A stretch of DNA of 64,000 nt from Patescibacteria group bacterium (GCA_041665165.1 JBAYJJ010000001.1:7210-71209); one strand, 5' to 3'. Numbered from the stretch's first letter, positions 3,570-47,774 are shown. Numbers and translations: made by a program. Notes: generated from the letters alone by a model not told the origin.

Positions 3570-3613
3570 CCCTTGAACTTGTTTGATGGATATGGTAATA
3601 AAAGACAGACATT

Positions 3614-11954: not shown

Positions 11955-13075
11955 ATTTGCTCAGGCATCGAAAACAACAAAGCGTTATCAACGAACTGGC
12001 CTGTTTTCTGTTTTAATTCGGCTCTCATGGCACCATTGTCCAAATACCCCATCCATTTTATTTTTGGCAAAAACATGCCCCCGTACCGCTCCTTGAAAAC
12101 GCTGATGGAAAGCTCCTTTGCGCTGGGAACATGATAAAGCTGGGGCGTAAAATACCTCTCGCCGATTTCATAGTATTTGAAACCTTTTTGTTTGTAATAC
12201 AGTATCGCTTCCCATTCCAACAAATGCCGTGGTGAATACTCTTTCTCGAATTCATCCAAATTGATTTGGGACCAGCCAAAGGCCATGCAATCGAATTCGC
12301 CGCAATACAAAAAACTGATTGCCTCGTCTTTCAGGTATGTTACGAACAGCGTGGCCTTGCCCTGGCGCATGCCGTCAAGCATGGAATCCCACGTCGCTTG
12401 CGGCCTGGTCATGCGGCCAGCCGACTTGATGTGCGTATCTTCGAAAATCTTGAAGATCCGATCGATTTGGTCCGCGTTGTTCTCTCTATTGAATACACGG
12501 ACCGCTAAGCCCTTTTTGTAACCGCGCTTTATATGCCTCAAATGGTACTTGCTCACATCCGCGCTCAAGTCCTCGATTTTCTTTTCCAGATCAACAGCGA
12601 TTGTGTTCTCGACCTCATAAATCAGGTTGTAGCGGAGCAGCTCGAACGTCGCGGGCTGGATGACTCCTCCCTCGTGCATAAACAGAGTGTTTAACGGATC
12701 CCAAAAAAAAGAAACTTCACTCGCCTTGTTTTCTTTGGCGAAGGCAAGGATTTCCGAAATAATGTTGTCCAGTATTTTCTTACGGTCTTGCCTGGGCATA
12801 GGCGCTACCACCGGCACGCCGCAAGGAGCATGGCCGAACGAAATAGAATGCACGCCCCTGTCTTTCAGATAACTGGACGCCAAGCTACAGATGGCGAGCG
12901 GCTTGCCTGTATGGTCGATGAACGCGAAAGAAGCGTTTTTTTCCACTTCCTCGAATTTCGAAAAATAGTCCAGCAGAGCCGCGGAATGAAAATGACAAGA
13001 ACCTGGCACGTTCAGCACCCAGGCATCCCACTCTTTTGCCGAAACATCAGAAAAAAGTACTTTTTTATACTCCAT
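11951..13075 (-). CDS. FemAB-like / BioF2-like GNAT-fold acyl(aminoacyl)transferase
   Basis: 374 aa with an ATGA overlap onto the next gene. The layout is W..W....HF.....L, then YHLRHIKRGYKKGL, then ATLFVTYLKDEAISFLYCGE....SPRHLLEWEAILYYKQKGFKYYEIGE. This is typical of the FemX/FemAB fold. Confidence 0.6.
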   Translation of the reverse strand: MEYKKVLFSDVSAKEWDAWVLNVPGSCHFHSAALLDYFSKFEEVEKNASFAFIDHTGKPLAICSLASSYLKDRGVHSISFGHAPCGVPVVAPMPRQDRKKILDNIISEILAFAKENKASEVSFFWDPLNTLFMHEGGVIQPATFELLRYNLIYEVENTIAVDLEKKIEDLSADVSKYHLRHIKRGYKKGLAVRVFNRENNADQIDRIFKIFEDTHIKSAGRMTRPQATWDSMLDGMRQGKATLFVTYLKDEAISFLYCGEFDCMAFGWSQINLDEFEKEYSPRHLLEWEAILYYKQKGFKYYEIGERYFTPQLYHVPSAKELSISVFKERYGGMFLPKIKWMGYLDNGAMRAELKQKTGQFVDNALLFSMPEQI

Positions 13076-15228: not shown

Positions 15229-16740
15229 ATGTCTGAACTACAAGGCAAAAAAATCCTCCTTTTACAGCAACGCAGATGGGCCACGAATATCGGCCATTTT
15301 TTAGCCATAAAACTACAGGCCCAAGGTTGCAGGCTCGCTGCGCTGACACTAAAAAGATCTGCCCATGAATTCATCCTTTCGCAAACCGAGGTCCGTTACG
15401 ATTTGGTGATAGGCAACGACGAAATCATGGATGACCCAAAAAAATATCTTGGTAACGACAACATTACCCTTAAGCAGGTCTGTGACGATTTAGGGATTGA
15501 CTCGGTTTGGCCGATAGCAAATGCGCTCAGGAACCATGTGCGCACATACCGCGATAAATTTTATTATGGCTACATGCAGAACGTATCCGATGAAGGAATC
15601 GCGGATTATGTTAAAGCTGTTTATAAATATACTGTATTGATATTTAATGAGTTCAGCCCTGATATAATAATCTCGCCGAACTTCGTATCCCTGCCCCATA
15701 TAATGCTCAGGCTGTATGCTGCAAAAAAAGGAATCAAGATGTTCGGACTGACGGATTCGAAAGTCAAGCACGTTAATATTTTCACTTACGGTGAATACGA
15801 CGACCGAGGTCCTTTTTTCGACCGTTTAGATGACCTGAACAACGGAAAAGCTACGAGCGACAACTTAGAAAAAGCTATCTCATACATCTCGGACTTCAGG
15901 CAACAATTCAGACAACCTACCTACGCTGTCAATCCGGATGCCAAAAAAACCTTGTACCGCGCGATCCGCAACGAACTGAGCCCTTATAAACAGATTTGGT
16001 CATGGTATACCAAGCCGCAAAAAAATTATCTCAAAAGTACTGGCATAACTTTGGATTACCGCCCCCCACGCATTATATTGCGCGATTTTTACTATAGTAA
16101 ATACTACCGGCATGCTGCAAAAAAATTCCCTTACGAGAAAATTGAAAACATCGATAAATGTATTTATTTCCCACTCCAGTTCCAGCCAGAAATTTCAATA
16201 GAAGTCATGGCGCCTTATTTCTGCAATCAGCTGGAAGTAGCGAGGCAGATAGCTATGTCCCTCCCGGACGATTACACTCTGATGGTGAAAGAACACCCGG
16301 CAATGGTAGGCTTAAGACCGCCTTCATCCATGATAAAACTCTCCAGGACACCAAACGTCAAAGTCATTGATTATCATGTCCCGAGCGATGTCGCCCTGAA
16401 AAAAGCCGACTTAGTCATAAGCCCAAACAGCACGGCGCTTGTTGAGGCCTCGTTCTACCATAAGCCAGCAATCCAATTAGGTAATCTTGGCACAACACAG
16501 ATGCTGCCGAATGTAGTCAGACATACGGACATGACTACCCTCTCAGGCACCATTAAACGGCTTTTGACGACCGACTTCAAGACCGAAGATTACGAGATGC
16601 GGTTAAGAAATTATATTGCAGCGGCTTATGATACGGGTTTTTCCATCGATTACACTGCTATCTGGGAAGAGGGCAACAAAAAAGAACTGGAAACGCTGCT
16701 GAATATCTACATAGAGGAAGTTAGGAAAAATATAAAATGA
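15229..16740 (+). CDS. KpsS/KpsC-like capsule-synthesis-family transferase (ulosonic acid transferase family)
   Basis: 503 aa. GKKILLLQQRRWATNIGHFLAIKL at the N-terminus and IYFPLQFQPEISI....LMVKEHPAMVG match the FPLQ...D/E and KEHP signatures of the capsule polysaccharide biosynthesis (KpsS/LpsZ) family. Confidence 0.55.
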   Translation: MSELQGKKILLLQQRRWATNIGHFLAIKLQAQGCRLAALTLKRSAHEFILSQTEVRYDLVIGNDEIMDDPKKYLGNDNITLKQVCDDLGIDSVWPIANALRNHVRTYRDKFYYGYMQNVSDEGIADYVKAVYKYTVLIFNEFSPDIIISPNFVSLPHIMLRLYAAKKGIKMFGLTDSKVKHVNIFTYGEYDDRGPFFDRLDDLNNGKATSDNLEKAISYISDFRQQFRQPTYAVNPDAKKTLYRAIRNELSPYKQIWSWYTKPQKNYLKSTGITLDYRPPRIILRDFYYSKYYRHAAKKFPYEKIENIDKCIYFPLQFQPEISIEVMAPYFCNQLEVARQIAMSLPDDYTLMVKEHPAMVGLRPPSSMIKLSRTPNVKVIDYHVPSDVALKKADLVISPNSTALVEASFYHKPAIQLGNLGTTQMLPNVVRHTDMTTLSGTIKRLLTTDFKTEDYEMRLRNYIAAAYDTGFSIDYTAIWEEGNKKELETLLNIYIEEVRKNIK

Positions 16741-16747
16741 GTATTTT

Positions 16748-18646
16748 ATGATGAACCCTGAACAGATACTGAGTTGCCCAAACTGCAAAAATAATTTCAC
16801 ACAGAACACATGCCGAAATTGCGGTTTTATTCTGGATCAAGTCAACGGCGGCATCTATCAGATGGCTAAAAACAAGAACTTCTATTTCCGCGAGAAAATG
16901 CCCCAACCGATCTTGGCGGAAATAAATAAGTCCGAGGATATATTCGCGGCGACTTATGCGGCATTCAAAAAAACCTTGCCTTGGAAGTACGACTTTTATG
17001 CGCTCGAATCAAACCGCGGGGCCGGCACGATTTTGAGCAAATTAGGTCCTGATTCAATCGTATTGGATTACGGAGCAGGCTGGGGCAACTTGGCAAAATT
17101 CGCCTCTTTATACTGCAAGCATGTTTTCGCCATGGACCTGACTTTGGAAAGCCTAGAGTTCTGCGACAAGACGTCGAAGCATGAGAACATGACATTCATC
17201 CACGGCGGAGACTACAAATATCTTCCTTTCAAGGATAAGTCGCTTGATGCCGTATTTTTGAATGGTGTTTTGGAATGGATACCGGAATATGACCTTTCAG
17301 CGCCCCCGCGCACGATTCAACTCAATTTTCTGAAAGAAATCCGTCGGGCGTTGAAAGATGATGGCCAAGTATTCATCGGCATCGAAAATCGTATCGGATT
17401 CCCCTATTTTTTCGGAAAGTCAGACGAACACTCTAAAATCAGGTTCGGCACTCTCATGCCCCGTGTTCTGGCGGACTTAGTCTCCAGGATAAAATTCCAC
17501 AAACCCTACCGTACATTTACTTATGGGCCTCGCGGCTATAAGCATCTTTTGAAAGAAGCTGGCTTTGAAGACAACGCCATAAATGTCCCCGCGTCTGACT
17601 ACAGGGAAATCATACAGATATTTTTACCTGAAGCTAAAAAAAGCTCAGTCTCGGCTCCGGAAGGTGACCTTAATTGGAAAAGGAAGGTCAAAAACCTTGC
17701 CCGGCGCTTATTCTACCCCTCATTTTTATCCAAATACTTTGCCCACGCGTTCTTGATAACTTCGAACTGGCACGAACCAAACCTGCTTAAAGATGTCTTG
17801 CTTATGAAAGGAGAGCATCTTAAAGATGCCAAAAAAGTGGTCAATAACAATCTCAAAGGCACAATCTTGGTTGAAACGGAAAATTATATCTATAAAATCC
17901 CAGCTCACTCAAAAGCCAGCGCAAATCTTAAAACCGAAATCAACACAATCGAAGAACTCGCAAAATCAGGCTGGATAAGCCCTTATTTGCCGAAGATCGA
18001 GCTTGCATCCATCAACAGCACGAACATCCAAATAATCACTAAGGAAAAACAGGTTAAAAAAGATAAAGGATATTTCGTGGAGATAAAAAAGTTCCTTGAC
18101 CTAAAAAACCGTGACGCTCAATATAAATCGCTTTCAGACGCAATCCAAGACCTGGATCTGCAAAATGTGAGGGGATATCTAAGACTGAACGAAAAAAGCG
18201 ATTTGATTGATCGGCTCATAGCCAAATCCACTGAAATAAAAACTCCAGTCGCGTTCGCTCATGGAGACCTCCATACTAACAATATTTTGGCGACCGCTGG
18301 AGGCATCAAAATCATAGACTGGGAATTTTATGCTAAAAAGGCGCCTACGGAATTCGATTTGATCAGCTTGGTCCTATATGAGGAGACCTTTGTCAAAAAA
18401 ACTCCTTATCACGATTTGATGGAGCGGTTCTTAAACCAGACATTTGTCCCGTCGCCTGAAAATAATTTCTCTGAACTTTTTCCAATCATCAAGGCAGCGC
18501 ATCCCCTGGTGCTGGTTGGACATTTCCTATATCAACTCAGCCAAGCACTAGGAAGATATGAAAACGTGGCGTTCGTACCTTATCAAAAAGATCAAAAATA
18601 TAAGAAAACCTTGGAAATCATCGAAAAATACATGGAATCCATATGA
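16748..18646 (+). CDS. Fusion protein: Zn-ribbon + class I SAM methyltransferase + APH/choline-kinase-like kinase
   Basis: 632 aa. Contains CPNCKNNFTQNTCRNCGF, the methyltransferase motif I VLDYGAGWGNL with LDAVFLNGVLEWIP, and a C-terminal kinase catalytic loop HGDLHTNNIL...IKIIDWEF. Confidence 0.7.
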   Translation: MMNPEQILSCPNCKNNFTQNTCRNCGFILDQVNGGIYQMAKNKNFYFREKMPQPILAEINKSEDIFAATYAAFKKTLPWKYDFYALESNRGAGTILSKLGPDSIVLDYGAGWGNLAKFASLYCKHVFAMDLTLESLEFCDKTSKHENMTFIHGGDYKYLPFKDKSLDAVFLNGVLEWIPEYDLSAPPRTIQLNFLKEIRRALKDDGQVFIGIENRIGFPYFFGKSDEHSKIRFGTLMPRVLADLVSRIKFHKPYRTFTYGPRGYKHLLKEAGFEDNAINVPASDYREIIQIFLPEAKKSSVSAPEGDLNWKRKVKNLARRLFYPSFLSKYFAHAFLITSNWHEPNLLKDVLLMKGEHLKDAKKVVNNNLKGTILVETENYIYKIPAHSKASANLKTEINTIEELAKSGWISPYLPKIELASINSTNIQIITKEKQVKKDKGYFVEIKKFLDLKNRDAQYKSLSDAIQDLDLQNVRGYLRLNEKSDLIDRLIAKSTEIKTPVAFAHGDLHTNNILATAGGIKIIDWEFYAKKAPTEFDLISLVLYEETFVKKTPYHDLMERFLNQTFVPSPENNFSELFPIIKAAHPLVLVGHFLYQLSQALGRYENVAFVPYQKDQKYKKTLEIIEKYMESI

Positions 18647-21333
18647 TTAATTCTATCCTGCTGATAAGGCCTTTCGCAGCGGAGAAAAAACAATTTCCTT
18701 TAGGCTTGCTGTATGTAGGCACTGCCTTAAAGCGCAAAGGCTATCAAGTCCAGATAATCGATTTGCAGGACGAACCCGAGCGTGAGAACGAAATCATCGA
18801 AACACTCAAGTCCCGGCCAGACATGCTGCTCGGCATAAGCGCACTAGCCCCCCAATATCATTGGGTAAAGCGTTTTACGCTCCGCCTGAAACAGATCATC
18901 CCACAGACCCCCGTGGTCATCGGCGGCCATATCGCAATCTGTCGCAAACAACTCCTGGAAAATACTGGGATTGATTATGTGTGCGTAGGCGAAGGCGAAG
19001 AAATGCTCCCCGAGCTGATTGAGGCGCTGAACAATGGTTCTTCGCTCGAAAATATCACAGGAATGGCTTTTAGAGGCAAGGATAGTGCGATGCTGAAAAC
19101 CGCTTGGCGACCACAGATAAAGGATTTCGGATTGCCGGATTACGACCTGATCAATGTCGAAAAATATATAATCCATCCGGATGAGGACAGTTTTTTCCAT
19201 AAATCAACCGAATACCAGAAACAAGCCACTCCGCAAGATAAGTCGTGCGTGATCATGTTCTCAAGAGGCTGTATCGGGCATTGCGGCTTCTGCTACAGGC
19301 ATCATGCTGGCTATCGGCAGCTCACGATTGAGGAAAGCTGGGAGAACCTGATGATCCTTTACCATAAGTATGGGGTCAGATATTTCAGGATCGATGATGA
19401 GCTCTTCACGAATAATCCGGAATGGCTAAAGGCGATTTGCGAAAAAATCCGCGAATCCGGGCTTGGCATAATGTTCAGGATCACCGGGTTGCGTGTTGAT
19501 ACTGTTGACGATGAACGCCTAGAAATACTCAAACAATCCGGCTGTATCGCTATCAATTATGGCATCGAATCCCTGTCCCAAACCACGCTGAACACTATGC
19601 TTAAAGGCGTGTCAGTCCAGCAAAACGAGGACGCTTTGCGCAAGACCCTGGCTCATGGCATGGCGACCATGGCTTATATCATTTGGGGTTACCAGGGAGA
19701 AAACAAAAAAACCATCCTGGAAACCATCGATACCCTGATTTCTTTAGGGCTCCCACCCCACCTGGTATCTATCTTTTATCTTGTCGCCCTGCCTGGCACT
19801 ACCATGTACGCCTATGCTTTGCGCACCAAAAAAATCACGGACGAAGATGCTTACTTGGATTCTTTGAACATACTCATGCAGAAGTGGGGCGGATTCCATA
19901 AACGATATCTCATCAACTATTCCGAGTTGTCGCGCAAAGAACTCAAAAAATACGAAGAGATGCTGATGCTCATCCTTAAGCTGCGCGTTCGTTTCGGAAA
20001 GAATAGTATCTTGTCGAAAATCGTACGCCAAACAGTTCCGAGCCTGCCAGCCAGCCTCTTTCTGGGCCTCACGAACGCCACATACTCGATTTTCAGGAAA
20101 ACTAAATCTTTTTTCGCCCCTAAAAAACCAAGAGCACAAAAAAAACCTGGTTCGCCTCTCTGTGTCTTATGCCTGTCGTTCAGGACCCCTCCTGCCGTGC
20201 GGCCGCAAGCGATATTGATCGGCAAAATGATACCCGAGTGGATCAGGCAAGGTGTCCAGCCTGTTATCGTCAACTACGACAACAATGGCGACTGGGGCAT
20301 TGACGTGCCGATATACAGCGTCCCCTTTTTCAGGATCAACCGTTTCGCAGCCAAGCTGCCTTTTGTGCGCGAAACTTTGGAATACATATATTTGAGGCGC
20401 CTGTGCCGAAAGCTCAAGCCCATAATCCATGAACATGAAATAGATCTGATTTTTTCCTTTGCCAATCCACAAGCCAGCAACGCGCTTGGAGCAATGTTGA
20501 AAAAACAGACCCGTTTGCCGTTCGTAGCCCATTTCAGCGACCCTTGGTATGACATGCCTCTTGAAAAAAAATCCTGGGTTTCCAACCGGCTGGTGCGGGC
20601 TTGGGAAAAATATGTCATCAAGAACAGTGATCGCGTAATTTTTGTTAACCCTATTTTGCGCGATTTGGTCATGAAAAAATATCCGACGGCTTGGGCTGAA
20701 AAAACCAGCATCATACCCCACTGCTTCGATCCTAAGCTATATGCCAAGGTTGAAAAACCAGCCGGTCGTCCTTTCCTCTTCAGCCATCTTGGGGCTTTTT
20801 ATGAGCAGCGTCGGCCAGAGCCTTTGCTGGAAGTCATGTCTAGAGTCGAAAAATCCGGCTTGAATAACTTCAAACTCGAACTCGTGGGCGCAGATCAGGC
20901 CTATACAGGCTTCGCGACCAAAGAGTTGAGCGGTTCTATCCAAAGCTTCGGACTTGCAGACATGGTTGAGGTCAAGCCGGCCGTTAACTATATCGAAAGC
21001 CTGAGGTTGATGTCCGAAGCCGACTGTTTGCTGGTCATGGACGCCAACTTGGCCTCAAGCCCGTTCTTGCCGTCCAAGCTGATTGATTATGCGGGTAGCG
21101 GCACAATGATCGTGGGCTTTACGCCACAGGGCAGCCCGACCCAGCACTTCCTGGAGAAGCTTGGTTACAGATCTTTCAACTATCAACAGATCGACCAAGC
21201 AGCCCAATATCTGGCTGACCTAGTCCAGACAAAAAAACAAATCATTCCGAACCGCGAATACCTGGAAGCTTTCGACGTGAAGCAAACCACCTCTGGATTG
21301 ATTGATGTTTTCAAACAAGCGCAAAAAAGATAG
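18643..21333 (+). CDS. Fusion protein: B12-binding radical SAM enzyme + GT-B (GT4-like) glycosyltransferase
   Basis: 896 aa. The N-terminal B12-binding-like domain is LLIRPF...GLLYVGTAL...VVIGGH. The radical SAM cluster motif is SRGCIGHCGFCY (CxxxCxxC). The C-terminal ~390 aa (DLIFSFANPQASN...FLPSKLIDYAGSG) is GT-B-like. Confidence 0.7.
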   Translation: MINSILLIRPFAAEKKQFPLGLLYVGTALKRKGYQVQIIDLQDEPERENEIIETLKSRPDMLLGISALAPQYHWVKRFTLRLKQIIPQTPVVIGGHIAICRKQLLENTGIDYVCVGEGEEMLPELIEALNNGSSLENITGMAFRGKDSAMLKTAWRPQIKDFGLPDYDLINVEKYIIHPDEDSFFHKSTEYQKQATPQDKSCVIMFSRGCIGHCGFCYRHHAGYRQLTIEESWENLMILYHKYGVRYFRIDDELFTNNPEWLKAICEKIRESGLGIMFRITGLRVDTVDDERLEILKQSGCIAINYGIESLSQTTLNTMLKGVSVQQNEDALRKTLAHGMATMAYIIWGYQGENKKTILETIDTLISLGLPPHLVSIFYLVALPGTTMYAYALRTKKITDEDAYLDSLNILMQKWGGFHKRYLINYSELSRKELKKYEEMLMLILKLRVRFGKNSILSKIVRQTVPSLPASLFLGLTNATYSIFRKTKSFFAPKKPRAQKKPGSPLCVLCLSFRTPPAVRPQAILIGKMIPEWIRQGVQPVIVNYDNNGDWGIDVPIYSVPFFRINRFAAKLPFVRETLEYIYLRRLCRKLKPIIHEHEIDLIFSFANPQASNALGAMLKKQTRLPFVAHFSDPWYDMPLEKKSWVSNRLVRAWEKYVIKNSDRVIFVNPILRDLVMKKYPTAWAEKTSIIPHCFDPKLYAKVEKPAGRPFLFSHLGAFYEQRRPEPLLEVMSRVEKSGLNNFKLELVGADQAYTGFATKELSGSIQSFGLADMVEVKPAVNYIESLRLMSEADCLLVMDANLASSPFLPSKLIDYAGSGTMIVGFTPQGSPTQHFLEKLGYRSFNYQQIDQAAQYLADLVQTKKQIIPNREYLEAFDVKQTTSGLIDVFKQAQKR

Positions 21334-21342
21334 AATCAGTCT

Positions 21343-22440
21343 ATGAAAGTCGCAATCATAATCGGCACTAGGCCTGAAATAATCAAAATGTCCCCCTTGA
21401 TTAGGACCTGCACCGAAAAAAGGCTTGATTTTTTTATTGTCCATACCGGCCAGCACTATGATTATGAGCTTGACGGAAAAATGTTCAAGGACCTTGGCCT
21501 GCCCAAGCCAAAATACAATCTGAACGTCGGCGGCAAGCCATACCGCATCCAAAAAAGCCTGATGATCAGGGAGATGGCTGATATTTTTAAACGCGAAGGA
21601 GTTGATGTAGTAGTGGTCCAAGGCGATACCAACAGCGTGCTGGCCGGGACCCTGGCCGGCCTCAAGACCAATTGCAGGGTCGCCCACCACGAGGCTGGTT
21701 TACGCAGCCACGATCTGGGTATGCTGGAAGAAGTGAATCGCATTATCACGGATAACGTGGCTGATTATCTATTCGCTCCGACCAAGACAGCGCTGAAGAA
21801 CCTCGAGCAAGAGGGTTTGAAAAAGCATTCTTATTTGACAGGCAACACGATTACTGACGCGGTTATCCAGAACTCAGAAATTGCCCGAAAAAAATCCATG
21901 ATCTTGCGCAAACTGAAACTGAAAAAATCAAGCTTTGTCTTGGTCACGACCCATCGTGCCGAAAACGTCGATGACAAAAATAAGCTCAGTAATATTTTGG
22001 CTGGATTGGACGCAGTCTCCAAAAAACTAAAACTCCCGGTCATTCTCCCCTTGCACCCGCGCACAAAATCCAATATCGAAAAATTCAGCCTCAAAAAACC
22101 CAAATCCATCAAATTCATCAAGCCTTTAGGCTATTTGGACTTCCTTAATCTGGAAGCTAATGCCAAATTGATAATCACCGACTCCGGCGGCATCCAGGAA
22201 GAGGCTAGTATCCTGAAAATACCCTGCGTGACCATCCGCGAGAATACTGAACGGCCTGAAACCATAAAAGCCGGGATAAACTTATTGGCCGGCACTGACC
22301 CGAAAAAAATCCTGGCATGTTCTGAACGGATCATAAAAAACAAAAAAAAATGGGGCAACTTGTACGGCAATGGCGATGCAGCTGAAAAAATAATGGACCA
22401 TATCATAAGGTTGGAAGCAGAATATGGCAATTTATATTAG
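21343..22440 (+). CDS. wecB: UDP-N-acetylglucosamine 2-epimerase
   Basis: 365 aa. Motifs are MKVAIIIGTRPEIIKMSPLI, VVVQGDTNS, HHEAGLRS and TDSGGIQEE. Whether it is hydrolysing or non-hydrolysing cannot be decided by eye. Confidence 0.85.
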   Translation: MKVAIIIGTRPEIIKMSPLIRTCTEKRLDFFIVHTGQHYDYELDGKMFKDLGLPKPKYNLNVGGKPYRIQKSLMIREMADIFKREGVDVVVVQGDTNSVLAGTLAGLKTNCRVAHHEAGLRSHDLGMLEEVNRIITDNVADYLFAPTKTALKNLEQEGLKKHSYLTGNTITDAVIQNSEIARKKSMILRKLKLKKSSFVLVTTHRAENVDDKNKLSNILAGLDAVSKKLKLPVILPLHPRTKSNIEKFSLKKPKSIKFIKPLGYLDFLNLEANAKLIITDSGGIQEEASILKIPCVTIRENTERPETIKAGINLLAGTDPKKILACSERIIKNKKKWGNLYGNGDAAEKIMDHIIRLEAEYGNLY

Positions 22441-23146
22441 GCCGTCAAAAACATTCTTTTTCTCTTTCCTGACGAAAGAGATCCAAACCGTAGGCAACGG
22501 CATAGGCTTGGACGCTGCCTGCGCAAACATGAAAAACAGGCACATGTTCAGGACTGCAAGTTATTACGGGGTTGATATCAATCTTGAACTCGTCAAAACC
22601 GGTCTAAACAAATATCAAGATTCCTCGACTTTTGGCATCTTGGCTGACATGTCCAAGCTCAATCCTATCCCCGAAGGCAGCGTTGATCTGATTGTTTCAA
22701 GCAATACTTTGTATACGATACCTGATGCGCAAAGGATTGATGCTATCCAACATTTGATTCGCATCACTGCTCCATCAGGCAAGCTGATATTAGAAGTTCC
22801 GATAGCAAATGATTTTGTGACTATACAAAAATTGACGAACGAATACTTTGAGCAAGTCCAAATAGTCCATTACCAAAACTTCCTGAGCTTAGCTTATGAA
22901 AAGATCTTTGAAAGAAACGGGAACTTAGGATCTCACCCGATTGCCGGATCCAAACCCTTTCTAGTACTGTCTTGGCTGATTAGCCGAGCCGAGTATCTGA
23001 CCAGGTATTTCAGATTCTTGAATAAGCATGTCGTTTTTATTTGCACGCACAAAAAATCACAAATCAAAAATGAGTTTGACTTAAAAAACCTGCCTGTATT
23101 GTCTGATAAAATCTACGTCCTCCCTGGGGTCAAAGCCACTTCCTGA
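22424..23146 (+). CDS. Class I SAM-dependent methyltransferase (tentative)
   Basis: 240 aa with a 17-nt overlap onto wecB. GIGLDAACAN (motif I-like) and VDLIVSSNTLYTIPDAQRIDAIQHLIRITAPSGKLILEVP (motifs II-III) are present. Confidence 0.5.
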   Translation: MAIYIRPSKTFFFSFLTKEIQTVGNGIGLDAACANMKNRHMFRTASYYGVDINLELVKTGLNKYQDSSTFGILADMSKLNPIPEGSVDLIVSSNTLYTIPDAQRIDAIQHLIRITAPSGKLILEVPIANDFVTIQKLTNEYFEQVQIVHYQNFLSLAYEKIFERNGNLGSHPIAGSKPFLVLSWLISRAEYLTRYFRFLNKHVVFICTHKKSQIKNEFDLKNLPVLSDKIYVLPGVKATS

Positions 23147-26039
23147 GCCAAGCCTTCAATTTTTCTGGTGGCTTGATATTGCTTTGGCGCAAACTGCGGC
23201 TCAAACGTTTGAAAGATGTCACTAAGACGATTGATACCGGACTTACGACACTTGCCCAAACTCTCCAAAAACCTTTGGCACGTCCCAAAGAATCAAGGCT
23301 AAGCTTATTTTTGCTTAAAACGTATTCGCCCTGTTTTAAGGCGCTTAAAATCGCGCCAGGATTTAAGTTTGCAGCGTTGACCTTAATTGACGGTCCGCCC
23401 AAATGTTCCTTGCGGTGCATATCCAAACCAGCAAAAGCTTTGAGCTCTGGATCGCTCTTGCGCAAAGTATCCAAGAGCTTGATGGCCTTGGTACGCGGCG
23501 CGTATTTGCCGTCATAATGCGCGTTCCAGATTTCTATGCCATCAAGCAATGCGCCGAATTGTCCTGTCGTAAATTTGTTTCTGTGCGGATGAGCTAGGAC
23601 CACAAGCGCTCCGTCTTTTTTCGCTGTCTCAATCATCTCAAGCGGCGACAGGTTGAGATCCAAATCAGTAACATTGATGAGCATCACGTGCTGGCCATTG
23701 CATGGCACCTCAAAACCAGGGATGAAAACAAAATCCGGATCGCTCTGCTCATGACAGCGACGAATATACTCCTGGACTTTGTCTTGAGCAAAATTCTCAA
23801 TATGCTCAGTCAAACATACAAAAGATACTCCTCGGGACTTAAAAATAGACTTTAGTTGCTCCAGATCCAGTTTCGCATCATAAGAATAGGCTGAATGCAC
23901 ATGCATCACGCCTTTATATCCAGTCTCCGTAGATTTTCCCCGCTGCATCACATCAAACGGTTCAACCAAAGCAGGCTTTAGATCAACCCAAGAAAAAATA
24001 TCACCTTTTGATTCGCTTCTGAAAAAATCAAAAATAAAATCTTTCAAAGAAACCCACTTTGACGGTTGGGGTAAGCCGCTTATTTTTCCACCAAACCAAA
24101 CAGACGTCAGATGCTTTACGTCAGCCAACAAGTGTCGCGAGGTAACTCCCTTCCTATATCCGGACGCGACAACATTGTGTCCTTGAGCCATTCCTAGGAG
24201 CAAAGCCGGAAAATCAACTCCAGAATGGATAGCCAAGGGCAAAGACCCCCAGAAACGCCCATTGATTTCCATGAGCACAAGCTTGCCAAATGCATCTCTC
24301 TTGAACTCGACCATGGCCACACCCGTCCAATCCAGAGCTTTGAGCAGATCAAGCGATGCTTTTCTCATATCTGCCGGCATTTCAATACTCTCACGCACAC
24401 AGCTCGCACCACCATAAGGCGAAATAGATCGGACGCGGCGATGAGCGAATTCTGACTTGACTTCTCCGTTCTGCATAAGGAAAAAGGCTCCGAATTCCTC
24501 GCCTTGGACATATCTCTGGATCAGCGGCCACTCCCCTGTCTTGTCTGCGATCTCTTGGGCTTTTTCTCCCAATTCCTGGGCATTTTGGATAGTGATTGTC
24601 CTACCCGAGGCTCCGCGACCGTTTTTCCACTGACAACTGTGTCGAGGTTTCAGTATGCAAGGAAAATTGACCTCAACTCCCGCAGCTTCTGCTTGTTCGC
24701 GGGATTCTGGCTTTTTTGTCCCAGGAATCGCAATCCCAAGTCTTTGAGCAAGCTCAAGCGTCTTAGACTTATCGAACGCGACCTCAACGCTTTCCGGCGT
24801 GGGCAATATTTTTTCTAAACCTGTAAATAGGTTTCTGTTTTTTGAAAGTGGCAAAAATGTAGCGTCGCTGCACGATAGAACCATCATATTCCCGCCATTG
24901 TCATCGTAGACTTGTTTGATTGCCTTGATAAAACCTTCCGGATCTGTGATTGGCGACGGATAAACAAAGGATTGCGTGCAATATCTTGAATGCAAGGCCA
25001 TGCCTGTTTTTCTTTCTGCTCCGCAAATGACTCTTATGTCTTTCGACCCCAGTGACCTCACAATAGCTAATGCGCTTTGCACACTTCCATCCAAAACCAT
25101 GACAGACTGTCTTGCTGTCGCGAGTTGACCAATTTCGCCCATCACGACCTGATCCATCAAACCCTGACGTTTAAGCTCAGCCACGCGCGCAAATATTTGG
25201 TCCAAGCCGCGCAATAATTCATCCGGGTTTGATGCCAAATTGAACGGATGGAACCAAAGATGAAAAACTTTTTTCTCTTTGACAGCTCGATCTATTCCAA
25301 GCAGGACTTTAGAAACCCGAAATGAAACCGGAAGATATTTCGCCCAGCCGCGTGCATGCGGATAAAAATAACTGCCTGGAATTGACGTCAAGCCGTCTTG
25401 TTGTTTTGGCGATACTGATCGGACTGGAAACACAAGGTAGTTGTCCAAAACGTGCGCAAGTCTTTTTAAGATGCCGGACAACCCCGCGTACCAATTCTCA
25501 TCAGGGGCGCGAAAGACCTCAATCCCCTGCTCTTTCAAGATCGAAGTATGAGCTACATGATTTTTTGGATAAACAAAAGACCTCAACTCCAAGCCTCTAC
25601 TTGAGGCCAAGTTCTTACACGCGATAAGCTCTGACCTGAACCATTCAGGGGTACAGGCAGGATCATCAGCAATGACATGCGAGAAAGTGTGGCACCCGAT
25701 TTCTTGTTTGACCGGACAGGAAAGGATCCGATCGATGATATCTTTGCCATACCAAATCGGATCGGATTGGATGTTTGAATGCGGGTCAATATCAAACCAA
25801 TTCGCTGGTGCAAAAATTTCAGGATGATTGTTGCATGAATCCAAAAATAAATGCCCGACCGTTGCCCAAGTGGCCTTGATGTCGTATTTGACGAACAGTT
25901 CCAGCAAACGAGTGATGGCTTGTCTCGTGTTCAGATAATCGTTTTTCAGATGGTCTGCGCCGCGCGTGCCCCAGGCTAATTCAAAATCAAGAGACAAAAC
26001 AAATGCTCCTTTTTTCAGCTCCAAATCGCGGCTTTGCAT
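23130..26039 (-). CDS. Three-domain protein: CE4 polysaccharide deacetylase + ATP-grasp + PHP phosphoesterase
   Basis: 969 aa. The N-terminal LSLDFELAWG...ATWATVGHLF...CHTFSH is NodB/CE4-like. The middle ILKPRHS...LIQRYVQGEEFGAFF...VAMVEFK...LMEINGRFWGS is ATP-grasp. The C-terminal VMHVHSAYSYD...LTEHIE...LAHPHR is PHP-like. Confidence 0.7.
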   Translation of the reverse strand: MQSRDLELKKGAFVLSLDFELAWGTRGADHLKNDYLNTRQAITRLLELFVKYDIKATWATVGHLFLDSCNNHPEIFAPANWFDIDPHSNIQSDPIWYGKDIIDRILSCPVKQEIGCHTFSHVIADDPACTPEWFRSELIACKNLASSRGLELRSFVYPKNHVAHTSILKEQGIEVFRAPDENWYAGLSGILKRLAHVLDNYLVFPVRSVSPKQQDGLTSIPGSYFYPHARGWAKYLPVSFRVSKVLLGIDRAVKEKKVFHLWFHPFNLASNPDELLRGLDQIFARVAELKRQGLMDQVVMGEIGQLATARQSVMVLDGSVQSALAIVRSLGSKDIRVICGAERKTGMALHSRYCTQSFVYPSPITDPEGFIKAIKQVYDDNGGNMMVLSCSDATFLPLSKNRNLFTGLEKILPTPESVEVAFDKSKTLELAQRLGIAIPGTKKPESREQAEAAGVEVNFPCILKPRHSCQWKNGRGASGRTITIQNAQELGEKAQEIADKTGEWPLIQRYVQGEEFGAFFLMQNGEVKSEFAHRRVRSISPYGGASCVRESIEMPADMRKASLDLLKALDWTGVAMVEFKRDAFGKLVLMEINGRFWGSLPLAIHSGVDFPALLLGMAQGHNVVASGYRKGVTSRHLLADVKHLTSVWFGGKISGLPQPSKWVSLKDFIFDFFRSESKGDIFSWVDLKPALVEPFDVMQRGKSTETGYKGVMHVHSAYSYDAKLDLEQLKSIFKSRGVSFVCLTEHIENFAQDKVQEYIRRCHEQSDPDFVFIPGFEVPCNGQHVMLINVTDLDLNLSPLEMIETAKKDGALVVLAHPHRNKFTTGQFGALLDGIEIWNAHYDGKYAPRTKAIKLLDTLRKSDPELKAFAGLDMHRKEHLGGPSIKVNAANLNPGAILSALKQGEYVLSKNKLSLDSLGRAKGFWRVWASVVSPVSIVLVTSFKRLSRSLRQSNIKPPEKLKAWLRKWL

Positions 26040-26040
26040 A

Positions 26041-28122
26041 TTAAGCGCTCATTTCGTCAATCAATTTGTTGATCAACCTCTTCAAATCATGCTCTTGCAC
26101 GATTCCCTGCCTGGCTCGTTCATCAGTGATTGGATTGGACAACAACCCTGCGAGTTTAACCAGAGCCGCCTCGTGATCAATCAAGGATGTGACTCCTGGC
26201 AATCCAAAATATTCTTCACCTTGAGCGAACACGGGCGTACCACAAGCCAAAGCCTCAAGCACGACCTTATCCAAGCTCCCGGTTTGGCTGGTGCTAATAA
26301 AGGCTGTTGCGCGCGCATAAATTTCCGGAAGATCCTCGCGCTTAATCGCACCAGTAAAAATCAGATGACCATCAACCCCAAGCTCGATTGCTTTTTTCTT
26401 CATCAGCTCCAGATAATCTTCGTGTCCCTCTGCTGTTCCGATCACTTTTAGTTTCCAATTAACATCCGGATGTTTGTGTTTAAACTCAGACATGAACTCC
26501 AGAGTATCTTCCAAGTGCTTGCGCGGATGAATGCGTGAAATCCAAAGAAGTTGAGGTTCGCGTTTCACGTCGAGTACTTTGAATTGTTCTGTGTCGATGC
26601 CATGGCCTACAATCGTCTTTTTCGGATGAGGAAGTCGTAAGCTCAAATCTGAAGCTGTAAAAGTCTTTTTGTTGAACCAGAGCGCGACCTTCAGCCACCA
26701 GGTGACGCTGCGGTGCATATACCACATGTACTTGCGCTTACCCAGCAAAATCCAAATAGGCGCGCCCAAAACCATAAGCTGGGGCGTCATATGCACCAGC
26801 ACAGCATCATATTGTTTGCGCAAGCGGAATGAGTAGTACCAGAGCTTCAGAACGCGCATGATTACTGATTTGCCCAAATCCTGACCCACAGCACCGCGCG
26901 GAAGGTCGGCAACCACCATGTGCCGCGTAAAGACAGCCATCTCACAGCCAGCATCCAAGAATTCTTGGATCCAACCGGCTGTAAACGCCAAAATCGGGTC
27001 ATTCTTATCAACAGACTGAGTCACGAACAATAATCGCAATTTTTTGTGGTTTTGGATTGCTGTTTGTAAAAAATCCATCATCTTGAACTGCGACGCGTTC
27101 CAAACAAATTCTTGTGCGCCTTGTTTGAATGCTTCTTGATTTTGGACAAGCGATTCCATGGCCTCAGCGAATTTTAGGGCATTGTCGATTGGCACAATCA
27201 GCCCGTTCTTCCCTGGCATGATGATTTCTTCAGCGCACCCCACGTCAGTCATGATCACAGGCGTTTTGTTTATCAATGATTCCAAGGCTGTCATGCCAAA
27301 ACCTTCGCGATCTGAAGTGATTAAGGTCGCGGTTGCGTTTCGGTAATAATCCGTCAAACTGTCTGCCCAAGGAATCAATTCAACCCTGTCCTCGAGTTTA
27401 AAATCCGCAATCAAACTTTTGATTTCAGCTACAAGCTGCCCAGATCCGATAATCAGCAGCTTGTATTCAGGCTGATTCGCTGAAAAAATCTTAAAAGCCT
27501 GGATGGCCAGGTCGATGCGTTTGATTTTAGTAAATCTGGCAACCAATAGAAAATACGGTTTCTTGTCTTCTAAATTAAGGCCGACTGGAACTGAATGAGT
27601 ATTCATCAAAGCTACCGGGAACCTCATAATTTTGTCTTGGCGAACTCCAAGCCTTAGCAAAGCTAGTTCTGTTTTTTTGCTTACAGCCCTGATCGCATCG
27701 GCGCGCTTTATTGCCCAGTGCGCAAAAATCGAGCGCAATCGGTTTGAGAATGATTCGCGCGCATAATAATCTCTATGAAAATGGTAGCCATGGTCTTGGA
27801 TGGCGAGCGCGCACTTAAAATATTTAGACGCGAACCAGCCTGCCAAAGCCGATTCTGCCGGGTCATATGTTGTCACAACATCAAACTTTTCTTGGCGCAT
27901 ACGGCGCGCGATCCGAATCGCGTCCCAGACATAAAACCAGCGGCTTTTTGAATTGGTCGAGATTATCCTGGTATTGCCGATGGCTTGGTCGAATTTGTTT
28001 TTAGCAAAAACCAAAATGACTGCTTTCTCAACTTCGTCCAGCTGCTCCAAAATCCTGCGCCTGATCGGCCCATCTTCAAACAGCTTTTTTTCTATGCTGA
28101 TGGATAAGACGCGGATTGCCAT
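26041..28122 (-). CDS. Two-module glycosyltransferase (GT4-like N-terminal half plus second GT-B module)
   Basis: The ATG at 28122 (MAIRVLS...) sits directly after the upstream stop at 28124; the track start at 28173 overlaps. The first module ends with ...LITSDREGFGMTALESL...PVIMTDVGCAEE. The second ends with ...STSQTGSLDKVVLEALACGTPVF. Confidence 0.7.
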   Translation of the reverse strand: MAIRVLSISIEKKLFEDGPIRRRILEQLDEVEKAVILVFAKNKFDQAIGNTRIISTNSKSRWFYVWDAIRIARRMRQEKFDVVTTYDPAESALAGWFASKYFKCALAIQDHGYHFHRDYYARESFSNRLRSIFAHWAIKRADAIRAVSKKTELALLRLGVRQDKIMRFPVALMNTHSVPVGLNLEDKKPYFLLVARFTKIKRIDLAIQAFKIFSANQPEYKLLIIGSGQLVAEIKSLIADFKLEDRVELIPWADSLTDYYRNATATLITSDREGFGMTALESLINKTPVIMTDVGCAEEIIMPGKNGLIVPIDNALKFAEAMESLVQNQEAFKQGAQEFVWNASQFKMMDFLQTAIQNHKKLRLLFVTQSVDKNDPILAFTAGWIQEFLDAGCEMAVFTRHMVVADLPRGAVGQDLGKSVIMRVLKLWYYSFRLRKQYDAVLVHMTPQLMVLGAPIWILLGKRKYMWYMHRSVTWWLKVALWFNKKTFTASDLSLRLPHPKKTIVGHGIDTEQFKVLDVKREPQLLWISRIHPRKHLEDTLEFMSEFKHKHPDVNWKLKVIGTAEGHEDYLELMKKKAIELGVDGHLIFTGAIKREDLPEIYARATAFISTSQTGSLDKVVLEALACGTPVFAQGEEYFGLPGVTSLIDHEAALVKLAGLLSNPITDERARQGIVQEHDLKRLINKLIDEMSA

Positions 28123-28123
28123 A

Positions 28124-30358
28124 TTAAATTTCGCTGACCAAAACCTCCAAAGTTGATTTGGCCATGTCCTCAAAACTATTTTGCTTCATGTTTTGCCCTG
28201 ATATAGAGTTCTGGGCTTGCAAAGCCTCAACCCAGGCCCGCTGGTCCAGATAAGGCAAGACCTTTACGCATCCAGGAAACAATTCAGCGGTTTCAGGATT
28301 GCCTCCGCGATCGCTCACCAAGCAAAATAGATTTTTAGAAACCGCCTCGACTACCACATGCGGAAAACCTTCATAGCCAGACGGCAAAACAAACACATCC
28401 GCGGCTGTGTACCATTTTGCCATTTGGTCCCTGGAGACACGGCCTAAAAACTTGACCCGATTGGAAACGTTTTTCGTTTCTGCAGAGTGTTTCAGATCTT
28501 CCAGCAAGGGGCCGTCGCCAGCCACGATAAGTATATAGTCGCTCGGCAAATCAGCGATGCATGAAACCAAAAAATCAACGTTCTTCCAAGGCACTGCCCT
28601 GACAGCAGTCAAGATCGCTTTTTTGCCGACAAGGCCGAACTCTTGCCTTATCTGCTCGCGGTCTGCGGTCAAAGCCAAAGGCGCAATGCTGTTGTAAATG
28701 ACTTTGATCTTGTCTGGCTTTACTCCCCACTTTTCCACGATTGTCTTCAAGTATTTGCTCGGCACAATCACAGCATCAGACCTTTTTGCCACAAATCTCT
28801 CAATCCCTTCCAAAATCCTGATGCTTCCTGAATGTTTGTGCGCGACAAACTCATCCAACAATTCTAATTTACGTCCTGCGTCGCTCGTCCCACGTCCTGC
28901 GTCAGTTTGATACTTTTCCCAAGCTTGGTCGCCGACGACTTTGATGACAAAACGGACGTTGCGGAGACGCGCGGCAAAATACGCCGGAAGACCGTCTGAG
29001 GCCGCACCCATGGCATATACTACATCCGCGCCTTTGACCTGTTTATAGACTTCCTTGAAAAACCGCCAAAACCTTAGTGCGGATTTGCGCCCAATCCTGA
29101 TGACTGGAAACTCTGTGTTGGTTTTTTCCGGCCTGTCTCCATATGCAACTACAAATGGAGCGTGCCCTATTTTCACAAGCTCTGTTGAAAAGCCTTTGAC
29201 ATATCCAGCTGGCCCGCCAATATCCGGCGGATAAATGCTGGAGGCAAACACAATCCTTTTTTGCGCAGCAAGCTTATCCCAAAGCGTATGGTATTTTGAG
29301 ATACAGGCTGCCCAATCGAAGTTCTCGGCGAATAACTGACCCTCTTTGCCCATTTGTTCTGCGAGTTGTTGGTCGTTGAGCAAAGTGATTAATTTCTCGG
29401 CCGCGGCCTGGTAATCATCGCGTTCGACGAGATAACCAGTCTTGCCATCAATCAATGCTTCTGGGATTCCGCCGACCCTTGTTGCTACTGTCGGCAAACC
29501 CGCAGCCGCGGCCTCAAGCAAAACAATACCTTGACCTTCGCCGCGCGACAAAAGCGAGAAGACAGAGCCTGTACGCAACACGCGCATTGCACCTTCATGA
29601 TCTTTTTTGCCGGTGAATGTCACTTTCTCAGAACAGCCCTGATCTTTTGCAAGCTGCTCAAGTGATGATTGCTCATCACCGTATCCGACCAAGTAGAGCT
29701 CTGCTTGCGGAACTTGTTTCAAGACCAGTGCAAAAGCTTTTATCAGACAGTCCACGCCTTTTTCTTTGGAGTAGCGCGCAATGCACACGATGCGATTTGG
29801 AGTTTTTTGTTCAGGAAGATTCTTGACCAAGTTCAAATCAACGCCATTGGGGATGACCTCGACATTACCGCCACCCCTGATCTTAAGTGCGCGATTTGCC
29901 AAAAATTGGCTGATGGCCGTGACTTCATCTGGCACGGTGTGGATTTTTTCCCAAAGCCAACTCATGGGCCATTTTCTCAATTTAGGATCTTCATCCAAAT
30001 TGCCGCTTTGCAAAGTCAGGACTGCACGGATTTTCGGTCTCAGCCATTTGATCAAAATCAAACCCATGGCCGCATGGCTTTCCATGACTGCATGCACGAT
30101 TTGCGGCTTGAGCTTCAAAACCGGGATTACGCACAAAAACGGATATAGAAACTTATCGAAAAGATGCCCTACCCCAACCCGGATAATAAGCACCCCATTG
30201 TCATTTTCGCGCCTGGCCAGGCTCCTGTCCCTAAGGCCGGCTATGACCACAATCTGCCTGTCGCCATGCCTGTCTGCCAGCTCCTGGACGCATAATTCAG
30301 CCCCGCTGATGAAGGGCTTATAGAACGTGGTTAAGATGACAATCGGACTTTTTTGCAT
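28124..30358 (-). CDS. Two-module GT4 glycosyltransferase
   Basis: 744 aa. Module 1 carries ...LLSRGEGQGIVLLEAAAAGLPTVATRVGGIPE and module 2 carries ...LPSGYEGFPHVVVEAVSKNLFCLVSDRGGNPE (two EX7E-type motifs). The modules are joined by a linker that carries a heptamer array. Confidence 0.75.
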   Translation of the reverse strand: MQKSPIVILTTFYKPFISGAELCVQELADRHGDRQIVVIAGLRDRSLARRENDNGVLIIRVGVGHLFDKFLYPFLCVIPVLKLKPQIVHAVMESHAAMGLILIKWLRPKIRAVLTLQSGNLDEDPKLRKWPMSWLWEKIHTVPDEVTAISQFLANRALKIRGGGNVEVIPNGVDLNLVKNLPEQKTPNRIVCIARYSKEKGVDCLIKAFALVLKQVPQAELYLVGYGDEQSSLEQLAKDQGCSEKVTFTGKKDHEGAMRVLRTGSVFSLLSRGEGQGIVLLEAAAAGLPTVATRVGGIPEALIDGKTGYLVERDDYQAAAEKLITLLNDQQLAEQMGKEGQLFAENFDWAACISKYHTLWDKLAAQKRIVFASSIYPPDIGGPAGYVKGFSTELVKIGHAPFVVAYGDRPEKTNTEFPVIRIGRKSALRFWRFFKEVYKQVKGADVVYAMGAASDGLPAYFAARLRNVRFVIKVVGDQAWEKYQTDAGRGTSDAGRKLELLDEFVAHKHSGSIRILEGIERFVAKRSDAVIVPSKYLKTIVEKWGVKPDKIKVIYNSIAPLALTADREQIRQEFGLVGKKAILTAVRAVPWKNVDFLVSCIADLPSDYILIVAGDGPLLEDLKHSAETKNVSNRVKFLGRVSRDQMAKWYTAADVFVLPSGYEGFPHVVVEAVSKNLFCLVSDRGGNPETAELFPGCVKVLPYLDQRAWVEALQAQNSISGQNMKQNSFEDMAKSTLEVLVSEI
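28869..28903. repeat. Degenerate heptamer tandem array inside a CDS linker
   Basis: Plus-strand units are TTACGTC CTGCGTC GCTCGTC CCACGTC CTGCGTC. On the coding strand these read GACGCAG GACGTGG GACGAGC GACGCAG GACGTAA and encode TDAGRGTSDAGRK between the two GT modules. Confidence 0.7.
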
Positions 30359-47647: not shown

Positions 47648-47774
47648 AAACTACTTAAAAAAATGACACAGCTTTCCAAAGCTCCCCTCTTGACAAAGGA
47701 GCCAAATTACTGGTAAGAAGCTCTCACTAGAGATGAAGGAGCGATCCTTCGACAACTCAAACAGGAGGTTGGTG

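Follow-up and report, generated by a model that had tools for sequence, protein, structure and literature searches.

What would a carbohydrate deacetylase, an ATP-dependent ligase and a metal-dependent hydrolase accomplish within one polypeptide? The question is raised by a 969-aa protein encoded in a 64,000-nucleotide stretch of DNA from a Patescibacteria group bacterium (GCA_041665165.1, JBAYJJ010000001.1:7210-71209; hereafter the window). Its open reading frame (ORF), taken from an ORF listing of the window, lies at positions 23130..26039 on the minus strand and has an ATG start. A preliminary description made from the sequence alone had seen three catalytic domains in this one ORF, a position at the end of a glycosyltransferase operon and a hydrophobic C-terminus; we found the ORF, the domains and the tail as described. 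Comparison with related loci indicates that the deacetylase, the ATP-grasp ligase and a phosphoesterase are a conserved functional unit, of which this gene is a complete fusion. We consider it an even bet that the protein is a trifunctional glycan-tailoring enzyme, which arose when three genes, as a rule neighbours with coupled translation, were joined end to end.

Three enzyme domains in one reading frame

The protein begins with a CE4 (NodB-type) deacetylase domain of a divergent subfamily (residues 1-306; 25122..26039, minus strand), followed by an ATP-grasp ligase domain (residues 310-700; 23940..25112, minus strand), a PHP-superfamily metal-dependent hydrolase domain (residues 708-920; 23280..23918, minus strand) and a conserved C-terminal tail (residues 921-969; 23133..23279, minus strand). 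With domain limits of 1-306, 310-700 and 708-969, the linkers amount to just a few residues. The CE4 and PHP domains score below curated Pfam cut-offs (17.2 bits for PF01522, Polysacc_deac_1, whose gathering score is 23.1, and 25.1 bits, just under the cut-off of 26.4, for PF02811), and both were therefore examined with family profiles.

For the CE4 domain a profile was needed because a search of the Protein Data Bank (PDB) with the single sequence gave a marginal match (E 0.34), and several close homologues of this region do have precomputed PF01522 matches. The family profile (alignment A1, 20 members) matched CE4 structures exclusively, the best being Helicobacter pylori PgdA (3qbu, E 5.6e-6), and HHalign related the family to canonical CE4 genes from related loci with 94% probability. 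D18, E20, H117, H121, H260 and H264 are invariant among the 20 homologues, H260 and H264 being candidates for the catalytic His of motif 5. The stretch H117-T-F-S-H121, an H(S/T)xxH motif 2, is also invariant and aligns with HGYSH of 3qbu, and HHalign pairs the family with the canonical EIGCHSxTH motif and with the proline of motif 3. Motif 1 is an invariant D18-x-E20, where the neighbouring CE4s have the canonical T-x-D-D, and the subfamily carries a Cys-rich insert at residues 66-95. Among the best 50 Foldseek matches of the full-length AlphaFold model there was no CE4 structural neighbour, all 50 being ATP-grasp proteins. The domain is apparently catalytic. It shares the NodB-type H-x-x-x-H motif and a polysaccharide-locus context with CE4 enzymes that act in polysaccharide and peptidoglycan metabolism, namely PgdA (3qbu), HfsH and the FemAB-paired deacetylases of PEP-CTERM loci; unlike these, it falls below the Pfam cut-off, has the D-x-E motif 1 and the Cys-rich insert, and belongs to a subfamily that is fused to ATP-grasp, methyltransferase or GT4 domains.

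The ATP-grasp domain is recognized by PF15632 (ATPgrasp_Ter; 33.2 bits, above the curated cut-off of 29.1) and by the NCBIfam PRK12767 “carbamoyl phosphate synthase-like” models, which match residues 325-636. Foldseek searches with the full-length AlphaFold model (pLDDT 93, pTM 0.67) returned 2pn1, biotin carboxylases, RizA and PylC at E values of 1e-14 to 1e-17. In an alignment of 50 family members (A4), K424, E578, E591, N593 and R595 are invariant and K464 is nearly so, and this domain too is apparently catalytic. Its best NCBIfam and structural matches are thus PRK12767 proteins (PDB 2pn1, a structural-genomics entry with no assigned function) and the L-amino-acid ligases RizA and PylC, and the likeness would extend to the chemistry of this group, in which a carboxylate is activated as an acyl-phosphate and amides are formed. 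Unlike the PRK12767 group, the family has an extra helical C-terminal extension of ~60 residues (~640-700 in the fusion protein) and a fixed partnership with deacetylases and phosphoesterases. Stand-alone homologues of ~390 aa span residues 312-700.

For the PHP domain, the best curated match is the NCBIfam CehA/McbA-type metallohydrolase domain (residues 708-912; 65.9 bits against a cut-off of 80, E 4e-18), and PF02811 is present in most stand-alone homologues. The AlphaFold (AF2) model of the domain (pLDDT 94.7) has TM0559 (2anu; E 5.7e-14, TM 0.69) as its best Foldseek match, with BVU_3505 (3e38) and then RNase AM and PsfC behind it, and the family profile reaches the TM0559/BVU_3505 structures at E 6e-8. 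These two proteins, deposited as predicted phosphoesterases only and without stated function, are together with the CehA/McbA domain the nearest relatives of the module in sequence and structure. The family has the metal-ligand pattern HxH...D, H, E, H, H, DxH: in an alignment of 53 sequences (A3), H713, H715, D721, E777, H784, H817, D873 and H875 are invariant and H746 is nearly so, and E836, W838, N839, R849 and R876 are invariant residues specific to this PHP family. The domain is apparently catalytic. The preliminary description had considered that two of the three domains might have lost their catalytic His/Asp residues; on alignment, the putative catalytic residues are all retained.

Matches to 2anu and 3e38 span the catalytic domain only, so these proteins lack the hydrophobic and basic tail that follows it here. 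A moderately hydrophobic segment, F924-F943, leads into a cationic amphipathic end; AlphaFold models predict helices at residues 924-952 and 959-968, and the net charge of the last 25 residues is +6. The tail is also found in stand-alone 265-aa PHP homologues, where K944 and R966 are invariant, and its ratio of nonsynonymous to synonymous substitution rates (dN/dS) is 0.08-0.26. From these features we regard it as probably a peripheral membrane anchor.

Most relatives carry the domains as three separate genes with overlapping stops and starts, so that one insertion or deletion could merge them, and an assembly or sequencing error of this kind, or a decaying pseudogene, would imitate a fusion. 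The preliminary description had itself named an assembly fusion of three genes as a possible error. The gapless 969-aa ORF recurs in three independent assemblies: in the window, in a Logan contig (L001; 82% identical, with flanking genes in common) and in a contig from a metagenome-assembled genome (MAG; CAZPAP010000021.1, locus L010; 92% identical), where the upstream genes are those of the window (Wzy-like, glycosyltransferase, epimerase and two double-GT4 genes). Pairwise dN/dS is 0.05-0.26 in all five segments compared, including the ATP-grasp/PHP junction and the tail, with dS of up to 1.5, and the AlphaFold model is confident throughout. Given three assemblies with conserved neighbours and low dN/dS, we rejected an artefact or pseudogene, to which we assign a negligible probability. 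The triple fusion is genuine and under purifying selection.

The record titles of L010 and of two further loci (L043, L058) read “uncultured Gammaproteobacteria”, and these labels look doubtful; for L010 this is because the contig is syntenic with the Patescibacteria window and its fusion protein is 92% identical. Proteins at least 90% identical to the MreB of the window come from Patescibacteria/Parcubacteria MAGs.

The fusion gene is the last of a three-gene minus-strand unit, behind two genes that each encode two GT4 glycosyltransferase modules by Pfam. The first gene of the operon (744 aa; 28124..30358, minus strand) is followed by the direct upstream partner (710 aa; 26041..28173, minus strand; two stretches of Glycos_transf_1), whose end is 1 bp from the start of the fusion gene; both are syntenic in L010. 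At its 3' end the fusion gene overlaps by 17 bp a convergent S-adenosylmethionine (SAM) methyltransferase gene (240 aa; 22424..23146, plus strand; Pfam Methyltransf_11), which is retained beside the fusion in each of the three triple-fusion loci (the window, L001 and L010).

The gene set in other genomes

How common is this combination? In a phmmer search against 1.84 billion representative proteins, full-length coverage was confined to the protein's own cluster, and the stand-alone modules measured ~300-340 aa (CE4), ~390 aa (ATP-grasp) and ~265 aa (PHP). The domain-architecture and neighbourhood searches that the preliminary description had proposed recovered every pairwise fusion, and the three activities as neighbouring, translationally coupled genes in many phyla. 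CE4 is fused to ATP-grasp in P0006 and P0008, and ATP-grasp to PHP in 12 or more clusters (P0037, P0038 and P0042 among them); in three of these, P0057, P0066 and P0098, the protein runs on into a GT4 domain. A word-indexed search added fusions of ATP-grasp to a low-molecular-weight protein tyrosine phosphatase (LMW-PTP; P0023, P0027 and P0028) and to a FemAB-like domain (P0026), and of CE4 to methyltransferases or to GT4 (P0009, P0022 and P0024). In one 835-aa protein (P0034), a CE4 domain of the subfamily seen in the fusion protein forms the C-terminus of a protein resembling a bacterial tyrosine (BY) kinase, with a Wzz-like region and a PF13614 P-loop domain. The triple fusion is thus a rare variant built from known enzyme families. 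Where the preliminary description had seen a unique triad, its rarity holds for the fusion and fails for the set of three genes, which is common. A full-text literature search turned up no account of a module combining CE4, ATP-grasp and PHP (or LMW-PTP), and the lipocone paper mentions ATP-grasp and PHP in unrelated operons only.

We took a census by scanning one genome per GTDB species, which yielded 80 loci with the ATP-grasp family of the fusion protein; neighbours were counted from hidden Markov model scans of all ORFs and then clustered. The loci come from Patescibacteria, Acidobacteriota, Nitrospira, Gemmatimonadota, Gammaproteobacteria and archaea, and their cultured members include Steroidobacter gossypii (Gammaproteobacteria) and Haloferax marinum (archaea). 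A PHP domain is fused or adjacent to the ATP-grasp in 42 of the 80, nearly always directly downstream with overlapping stop and start, and an LMW-PTP in 15, so that 57 have a phosphoesterase of one kind or the other; the C-X5-R-S loop is intact in all LMW-PTP replacements. CE4 genes of the fusion protein's subfamily occur in 13 loci and canonical ones in 43, with any CE4 present within ~7 kb in 55 and at most 2 kb from the ATP-grasp in 50. A CE4 within 2 kb and a phosphoesterase within 1 kb coincide in 37 loci, 20 have the phosphoesterase only, 13 the CE4 only, and 10 neither.

Where a nearby CE4 is absent, the ATP-grasp is often flanked by a gene for a DegT aminotransferase or for a FemAB-like aminoacyl transferase, and in loci that lack a phosphoesterase it is either fused to a FemAB-like domain or lies next to a canonical CE4 or DegT sugar aminotransferase gene. 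A CE4 or DegT gene is present in 59 of the 80 loci, a UDP-sugar dehydrogenase in 15 and a FemAB-like gene in 10. The only neighbour families that recur across the census are glycosyltransferases, CE4, DegT, Wzy, UDP-sugar dehydrogenase, AsnB, epimerase, flippase and FemAB-like proteins.

Several loci show the unit in partly fused or separate form. In L002 and L009 an overlapping PHP gene comes after a gene for CE4+ATP-grasp; in L002 this PHP gene encodes 266 aa that are 40% identical to residues 709-969 of the fusion protein, tail included, and in L009 is 32% identical to its C-terminus, again with the tail. In five other loci (L011, L013, L016, L043 and L058) CE4, ATP-grasp and PHP are three overlapping genes in the order of the fusion, and L003-L005 carry the CE4 as a gene of its own, overlapping one that encodes an ATP-grasp+LMW-PTP fusion. 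The triple fusion could, more tentatively, be read as a “Rosetta stone” for a three-enzyme pathway of deacetylase, PRK12767-type ATP-grasp and PHP or LMW-PTP, and it provides a hypothesis for three unnamed families: the ~265-aa PHP proteins with a basic tail, the ~390-aa ATP-grasp proteins and the divergent CE4 subfamily. Dozens of species-level lineages in the census carry the module, uncultivated Patescibacteria among them.

A ~1,290-aa protein without a Pfam match, encoded in the window at 36644-40519 (minus strand) and adjoining a Wzy_C-domain protein, is another conserved neighbour of CE4/ATP-grasp/PHP genes, with counterparts at 1-3632 in L002 and 1-3329 in L009.

A candidate reaction scheme and its rivals

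How might the three activities follow one another? In the scheme we favour, the C-terminal tail would hold the enzyme at the cytoplasmic face of the membrane, where its substrate would be an N-acetylated amino sugar of a glycan under assembly by the upstream GT4 transferases. The CE4 domain would remove the N-acetyl group to give a free amine, and the ATP-grasp domain would convert a carboxylate to an acyl-phosphate and couple it to the freed amine, forming a new amide. One of the coupling partners would bear a phosphate “handle”, which the PHP domain would hydrolyse after coupling. We infer the substrates, the reaction order, the direction of the amide and the location of the phosphate from genes and motifs, and give this course of deacetylation, N-acylation and dephosphorylation on a membrane glycan intermediate about the same chance of being right as of being wrong. 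The identity of the phosphorylated partner is a guess; our preferred candidates are common phospho-acids, such as 3-phosphoglycerate or phosphoserine, and a common metabolite is favoured because the neighbours include no conserved gene for its synthesis.

Two features of the census support a model in which a sugar amine is acylated and a phosphate then removed. The recurrent pairing of the ATP-grasp with enzymes that generate sugar amines (CE4 or DegT) suggests that the amide is formed on such an amine. Acylation of the deacetylated amine was what the preliminary description had proposed, and this proposal gains indirect support from the neighbourhoods (CE4/DegT in 59 of 80 loci versus UDP-sugar dehydrogenase in 15). 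Replacement of PHP by the unrelated LMW-PTP, with its C-X5-R-S loop intact, argues for phosphomonoester hydrolysis as the third step, and supports the earlier reading of the PHP domain as a phosphoesterase. The scheme is also favoured by the structural kinship of the ATP-grasp with the amino-acid ligases RizA and PylC, and the Campylobacter capsule and mycothiol pathways described below offer precedents in which a phosphate accompanies an amide ligation and is removed by a phosphatase.

The window holds a second, non-homologous set of ATP-grasp, phosphoesterase and deacetylase genes at 866-4288 on the plus strand. Here a NeuB-type nonulosonic acid synthase (866-1951) is followed by a PRK12767-type ATP-grasp (1948-2880), a Metallophos phosphoesterase (2877-3569) and a PIG-L/BshB-like deacetylase (3614-4288), all on the plus strand. 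A metagenome scan with this second ATP-grasp returned one relative, a groundwater contig (L090) that keeps the gene order of the set at 57%, 48% and 53% identity. We count this set in favour of the deacetylase/ligase/phosphatase scheme; alternatively, its Metallophos enzyme could serve the nonulosonic acid pathway as a phosphatase for a sugar phosphate.

Several observations weigh against the scheme. No recognized phosphoesterase stands beside the ATP-grasp in 23 of the 80 loci, and a CE4+ATP-grasp fusion (P0003) occurs without PHP in three loci; the phosphatase step is therefore not obligatory, or is encoded elsewhere. Clustering of the neighbours in all 80 loci revealed no conserved gene making a dedicated phosphorylated co-substrate. 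The D-x-E motif 1, in place of the canonical D-D, means that the CE4 substrate could be atypical. CehA/McbA, the best curated match of the PHP domain, takes its name from members that are carbaryl (carbamate) hydrolases, so that hydrolysis of a bond other than a phosphate ester is possible. Finally, the hydrophobicity of the tail is borderline, with a Kyte-Doolittle maximum over 19 residues (KD-19) of 1.4 and a family median of 1.56.

The ATP-grasp is tied more closely to the phosphoesterase (57 loci, and more fusions) than to CE4 (50 loci), and this fits a different assignment, in which the ATP-grasp couples the C6 carboxylate of a glycan uronic acid to a phosphorylated amine, the PHP domain dephosphorylates the product and the CE4 domain acts independently. 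A direct precedent is the Campylobacter jejuni HS:2 capsule, where the ATP-grasp domain of Cj1438, a ligase fused to glycosyltransferase domains, amidates glucuronate with serinol phosphate or ethanolamine phosphate and Cj1435 subsequently removes the phosphate (PMC11800379). Our scheme would have in common with that system an ATP-grasp amide on a surface-polysaccharide sugar, a phosphorylated co-substrate and a dedicated phosphatase. The differences are that the Campylobacter system has no deacetylase and that its sugar supplies the carboxylate, whereas the neighbourhoods of the fusion family favour a sugar amine. In addition, Cj1438C is a TupA-like ATP-grasp; no TupA-like model appeared among the Pfam hits of the fusion protein up to E = 1, only PRK12767/ATPgrasp_Ter models match its ATP-grasp, and any likeness to the Cj1438C type would be one of function. 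Cj1435 we take to be neither a PHP nor an LMW-PTP enzyme.

Uronic acids could be supplied by the UDP-glucose/GDP-mannose dehydrogenase genes found in L002, L003-L005 and 15 of the 80 census loci, and a phosphorylated amine could be linked to the methyltransferase/choline-ethanolamine-kinase-like fusion encoded in the window at 16748-18646. However, 15 loci with a dehydrogenase stand against 59 with CE4 or DegT, Pfam scans of the window ORFs found no dehydrogenase in the 64 kb, there is no conserved gene for phospho-amine synthesis, and the presence of a CE4 domain in the same polypeptide would be left unexplained. We therefore consider uronic-acid amidation, with ethanolamine phosphate, serinol phosphate or a phospho-amino acid as the amine, unlikely.

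The nature of the two phosphatases raises a further alternative. PHP (CpsB-like) and LMW-PTP (Wzb-like) enzymes are the two known phosphatase classes for BY-kinases, and they are exactly the two families that alternate as partners of the ATP-grasp. The PHP domain might thus dephosphorylate a BY-kinase controlling polysaccharide export and be fused through gene proximity only. The CE4 homologue joined to a BY-kinase-type P-loop domain (P0034) is in keeping with such a role, as is the position of the LMW-PTP in three Steroidobacter-type loci, where it lies on the opposite strand like an independent gene. Against this, an iterative search of 89 loci turned up a BY-kinase homologue no farther than 10 kb away in just 3, scans of the window found none, and the module is present in archaea and Patescibacteria. 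Structurally, the PHP domain is nearest to TM0559 and BVU_3505, with no CpsB/YwqE among the best 50 Foldseek matches, and the protein has no CpsB-family Pfam hit. In dozens of lineages the PHP gene is either fused to that of the ATP-grasp or translationally coupled to it, in a fixed order, and beside the window's other ATP-grasp and deacetylase there is a third phosphoesterase type, Metallophos. A regulatory phosphatase is for these reasons quite improbable, and LMW-PTP or PHP genes in polysaccharide loci do not warrant automatic annotation as tyrosine-kinase phosphatases.

Fusions of GT4 to ATP-grasp-PHP (P0057, P0066 and P0098) and to CE4 (P0009, P0022 and P0024) are consistent with synthesis of a small glycoside of the mycothiol/bacillithiol type, in which GlcNAc would be transferred by a GT4 to an acceptor bearing a phosphate and the PHP, CE4 and ATP-grasp domains would dephosphorylate, deacetylate and add an amino acid. 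This reaction logic is that of mycothiol synthesis, which proceeds stepwise through the GT4 MshA, the phosphatase MshA2, the deacetylase MshB and the ATP-dependent ligase MshC (PMC4360819). The parallel, which extends to BshA/B/C, lies in the sequence of GlcNAc transfer by a GT4, dephosphorylation, N-deacetylation and ATP-dependent amino-acid ligation; the enzymes are non-homologous to the fusion protein, and the product is a soluble thiol, in contrast to the polymer or lipid-linked glycan context here. The loci are rich in Wzy-type polymerases/ligases, Wzx flippases and multiple glycosyltransferases, and the tail resembles a membrane anchor. MshB and BshB belong to the PIG-L/LmbE type and not to CE4, and MshC is not known to be an ATP-grasp enzyme. 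A small-glycoside product accordingly strikes us as very doubtful.

We return to the sequence of deacetylation, N-acylation and dephosphorylation. Bacterial and archaeal surface glycans bear many unusual N-acyl and amide substituents, for many of which, to our knowledge, the responsible enzyme has yet to be identified. It is possible, as a more tentative extension that we would not yet favour, that the unit represents a widespread three-enzyme pathway exchanging the N-acetyl group of amino sugars in surface glycans for an acyl group delivered as a phosphorylated acid, giving for example N-glyceroyl sugars with 3-phosphoglycerate or N-seryl sugars with phosphoserine. Such a pathway would be at work in Patescibacteria, Acidobacteriota, Nitrospira, Gemmatimonadota, Gammaproteobacteria and a number of archaeal phyla, and could explain some of these unusual N-acyl substituents. 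Two culturable carriers, Steroidobacter gossypii S1-65 (L067, with CE4, ATP-grasp and LMW-PTP genes) and Haloferax marinum MBLA0078 (L046), make genetic testing feasible.

Other genes of the glycan island

What kind of locus surrounds the fusion gene? The whole window is a 64-kb glycan-biosynthesis island. Besides NeuB and further genes of the nonulosonic-acid type, it holds DegT aminotransferases, numerous GT4 and GT2 genes, a UDP-GlcNAc 2-epimerase, an ABC exporter, a pair of Wzy-like genes and a FemAB-like gene (11951-13075). The preliminary description had proposed looking for CE4+ATP-grasp pairs in exosortase-type exopolysaccharide loci. No exosortase model appeared when the main (non-nested) ORFs of the window, those of at least 150 aa, were scanned with Pfam, and up to E = 1 the fusion protein matched none of the NCBIfam models associated with PEP-CTERM. 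The locus has Wzy-type, ABC-transporter and nonulosonic-acid genes, and an exosortase/PEP-CTERM setting is not supported for the window. No tRNA, tmRNA or Rfam family reached threshold anywhere in the 64 kb.

Two other fusions are encoded on the plus strand. An 896-aa protein (18643-21333) joins a B12-binding radical SAM enzyme, methyltransferase-like, to a GT4 glycosyltransferase; its best NCBIfam matches are of the BchE, HpnJ and PhpK types, all under cut-off, and we know of no described example of this pairing. Just upstream, a 632-aa protein (16748-18646) combines a SAM methyltransferase with a choline/ethanolamine-kinase-like domain of the APH fold, and is a candidate source of a phosphorylated small molecule with which the glycan might be decorated.

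A 653-aa predicted secreted protein (47733-49694, plus strand) stands out by a local GC content of 62%, versus ~47%. Long Gly/Thr/Ser/Ala-rich low-complexity runs (GGTSTGGTAG-like) alternate in it with Cys-containing modules, and it has no Pfam match; one possibility is a surface protein with heavy glycosylation, which would be a candidate acceptor for the glycan of the locus. Close to it, a 623-aa protein (50551-52422, minus strand) contains four Cu-binding_MopE-like repeats, which are putatively metal-binding. A 503-aa Capsule_synth-domain protein (15229-16740, plus strand) matches the BFO_1060 family glycosyltransferase model weakly (35 bits against 200), and may be a nonulosonic-acid transferase because NeuB pathway genes are adjacent.

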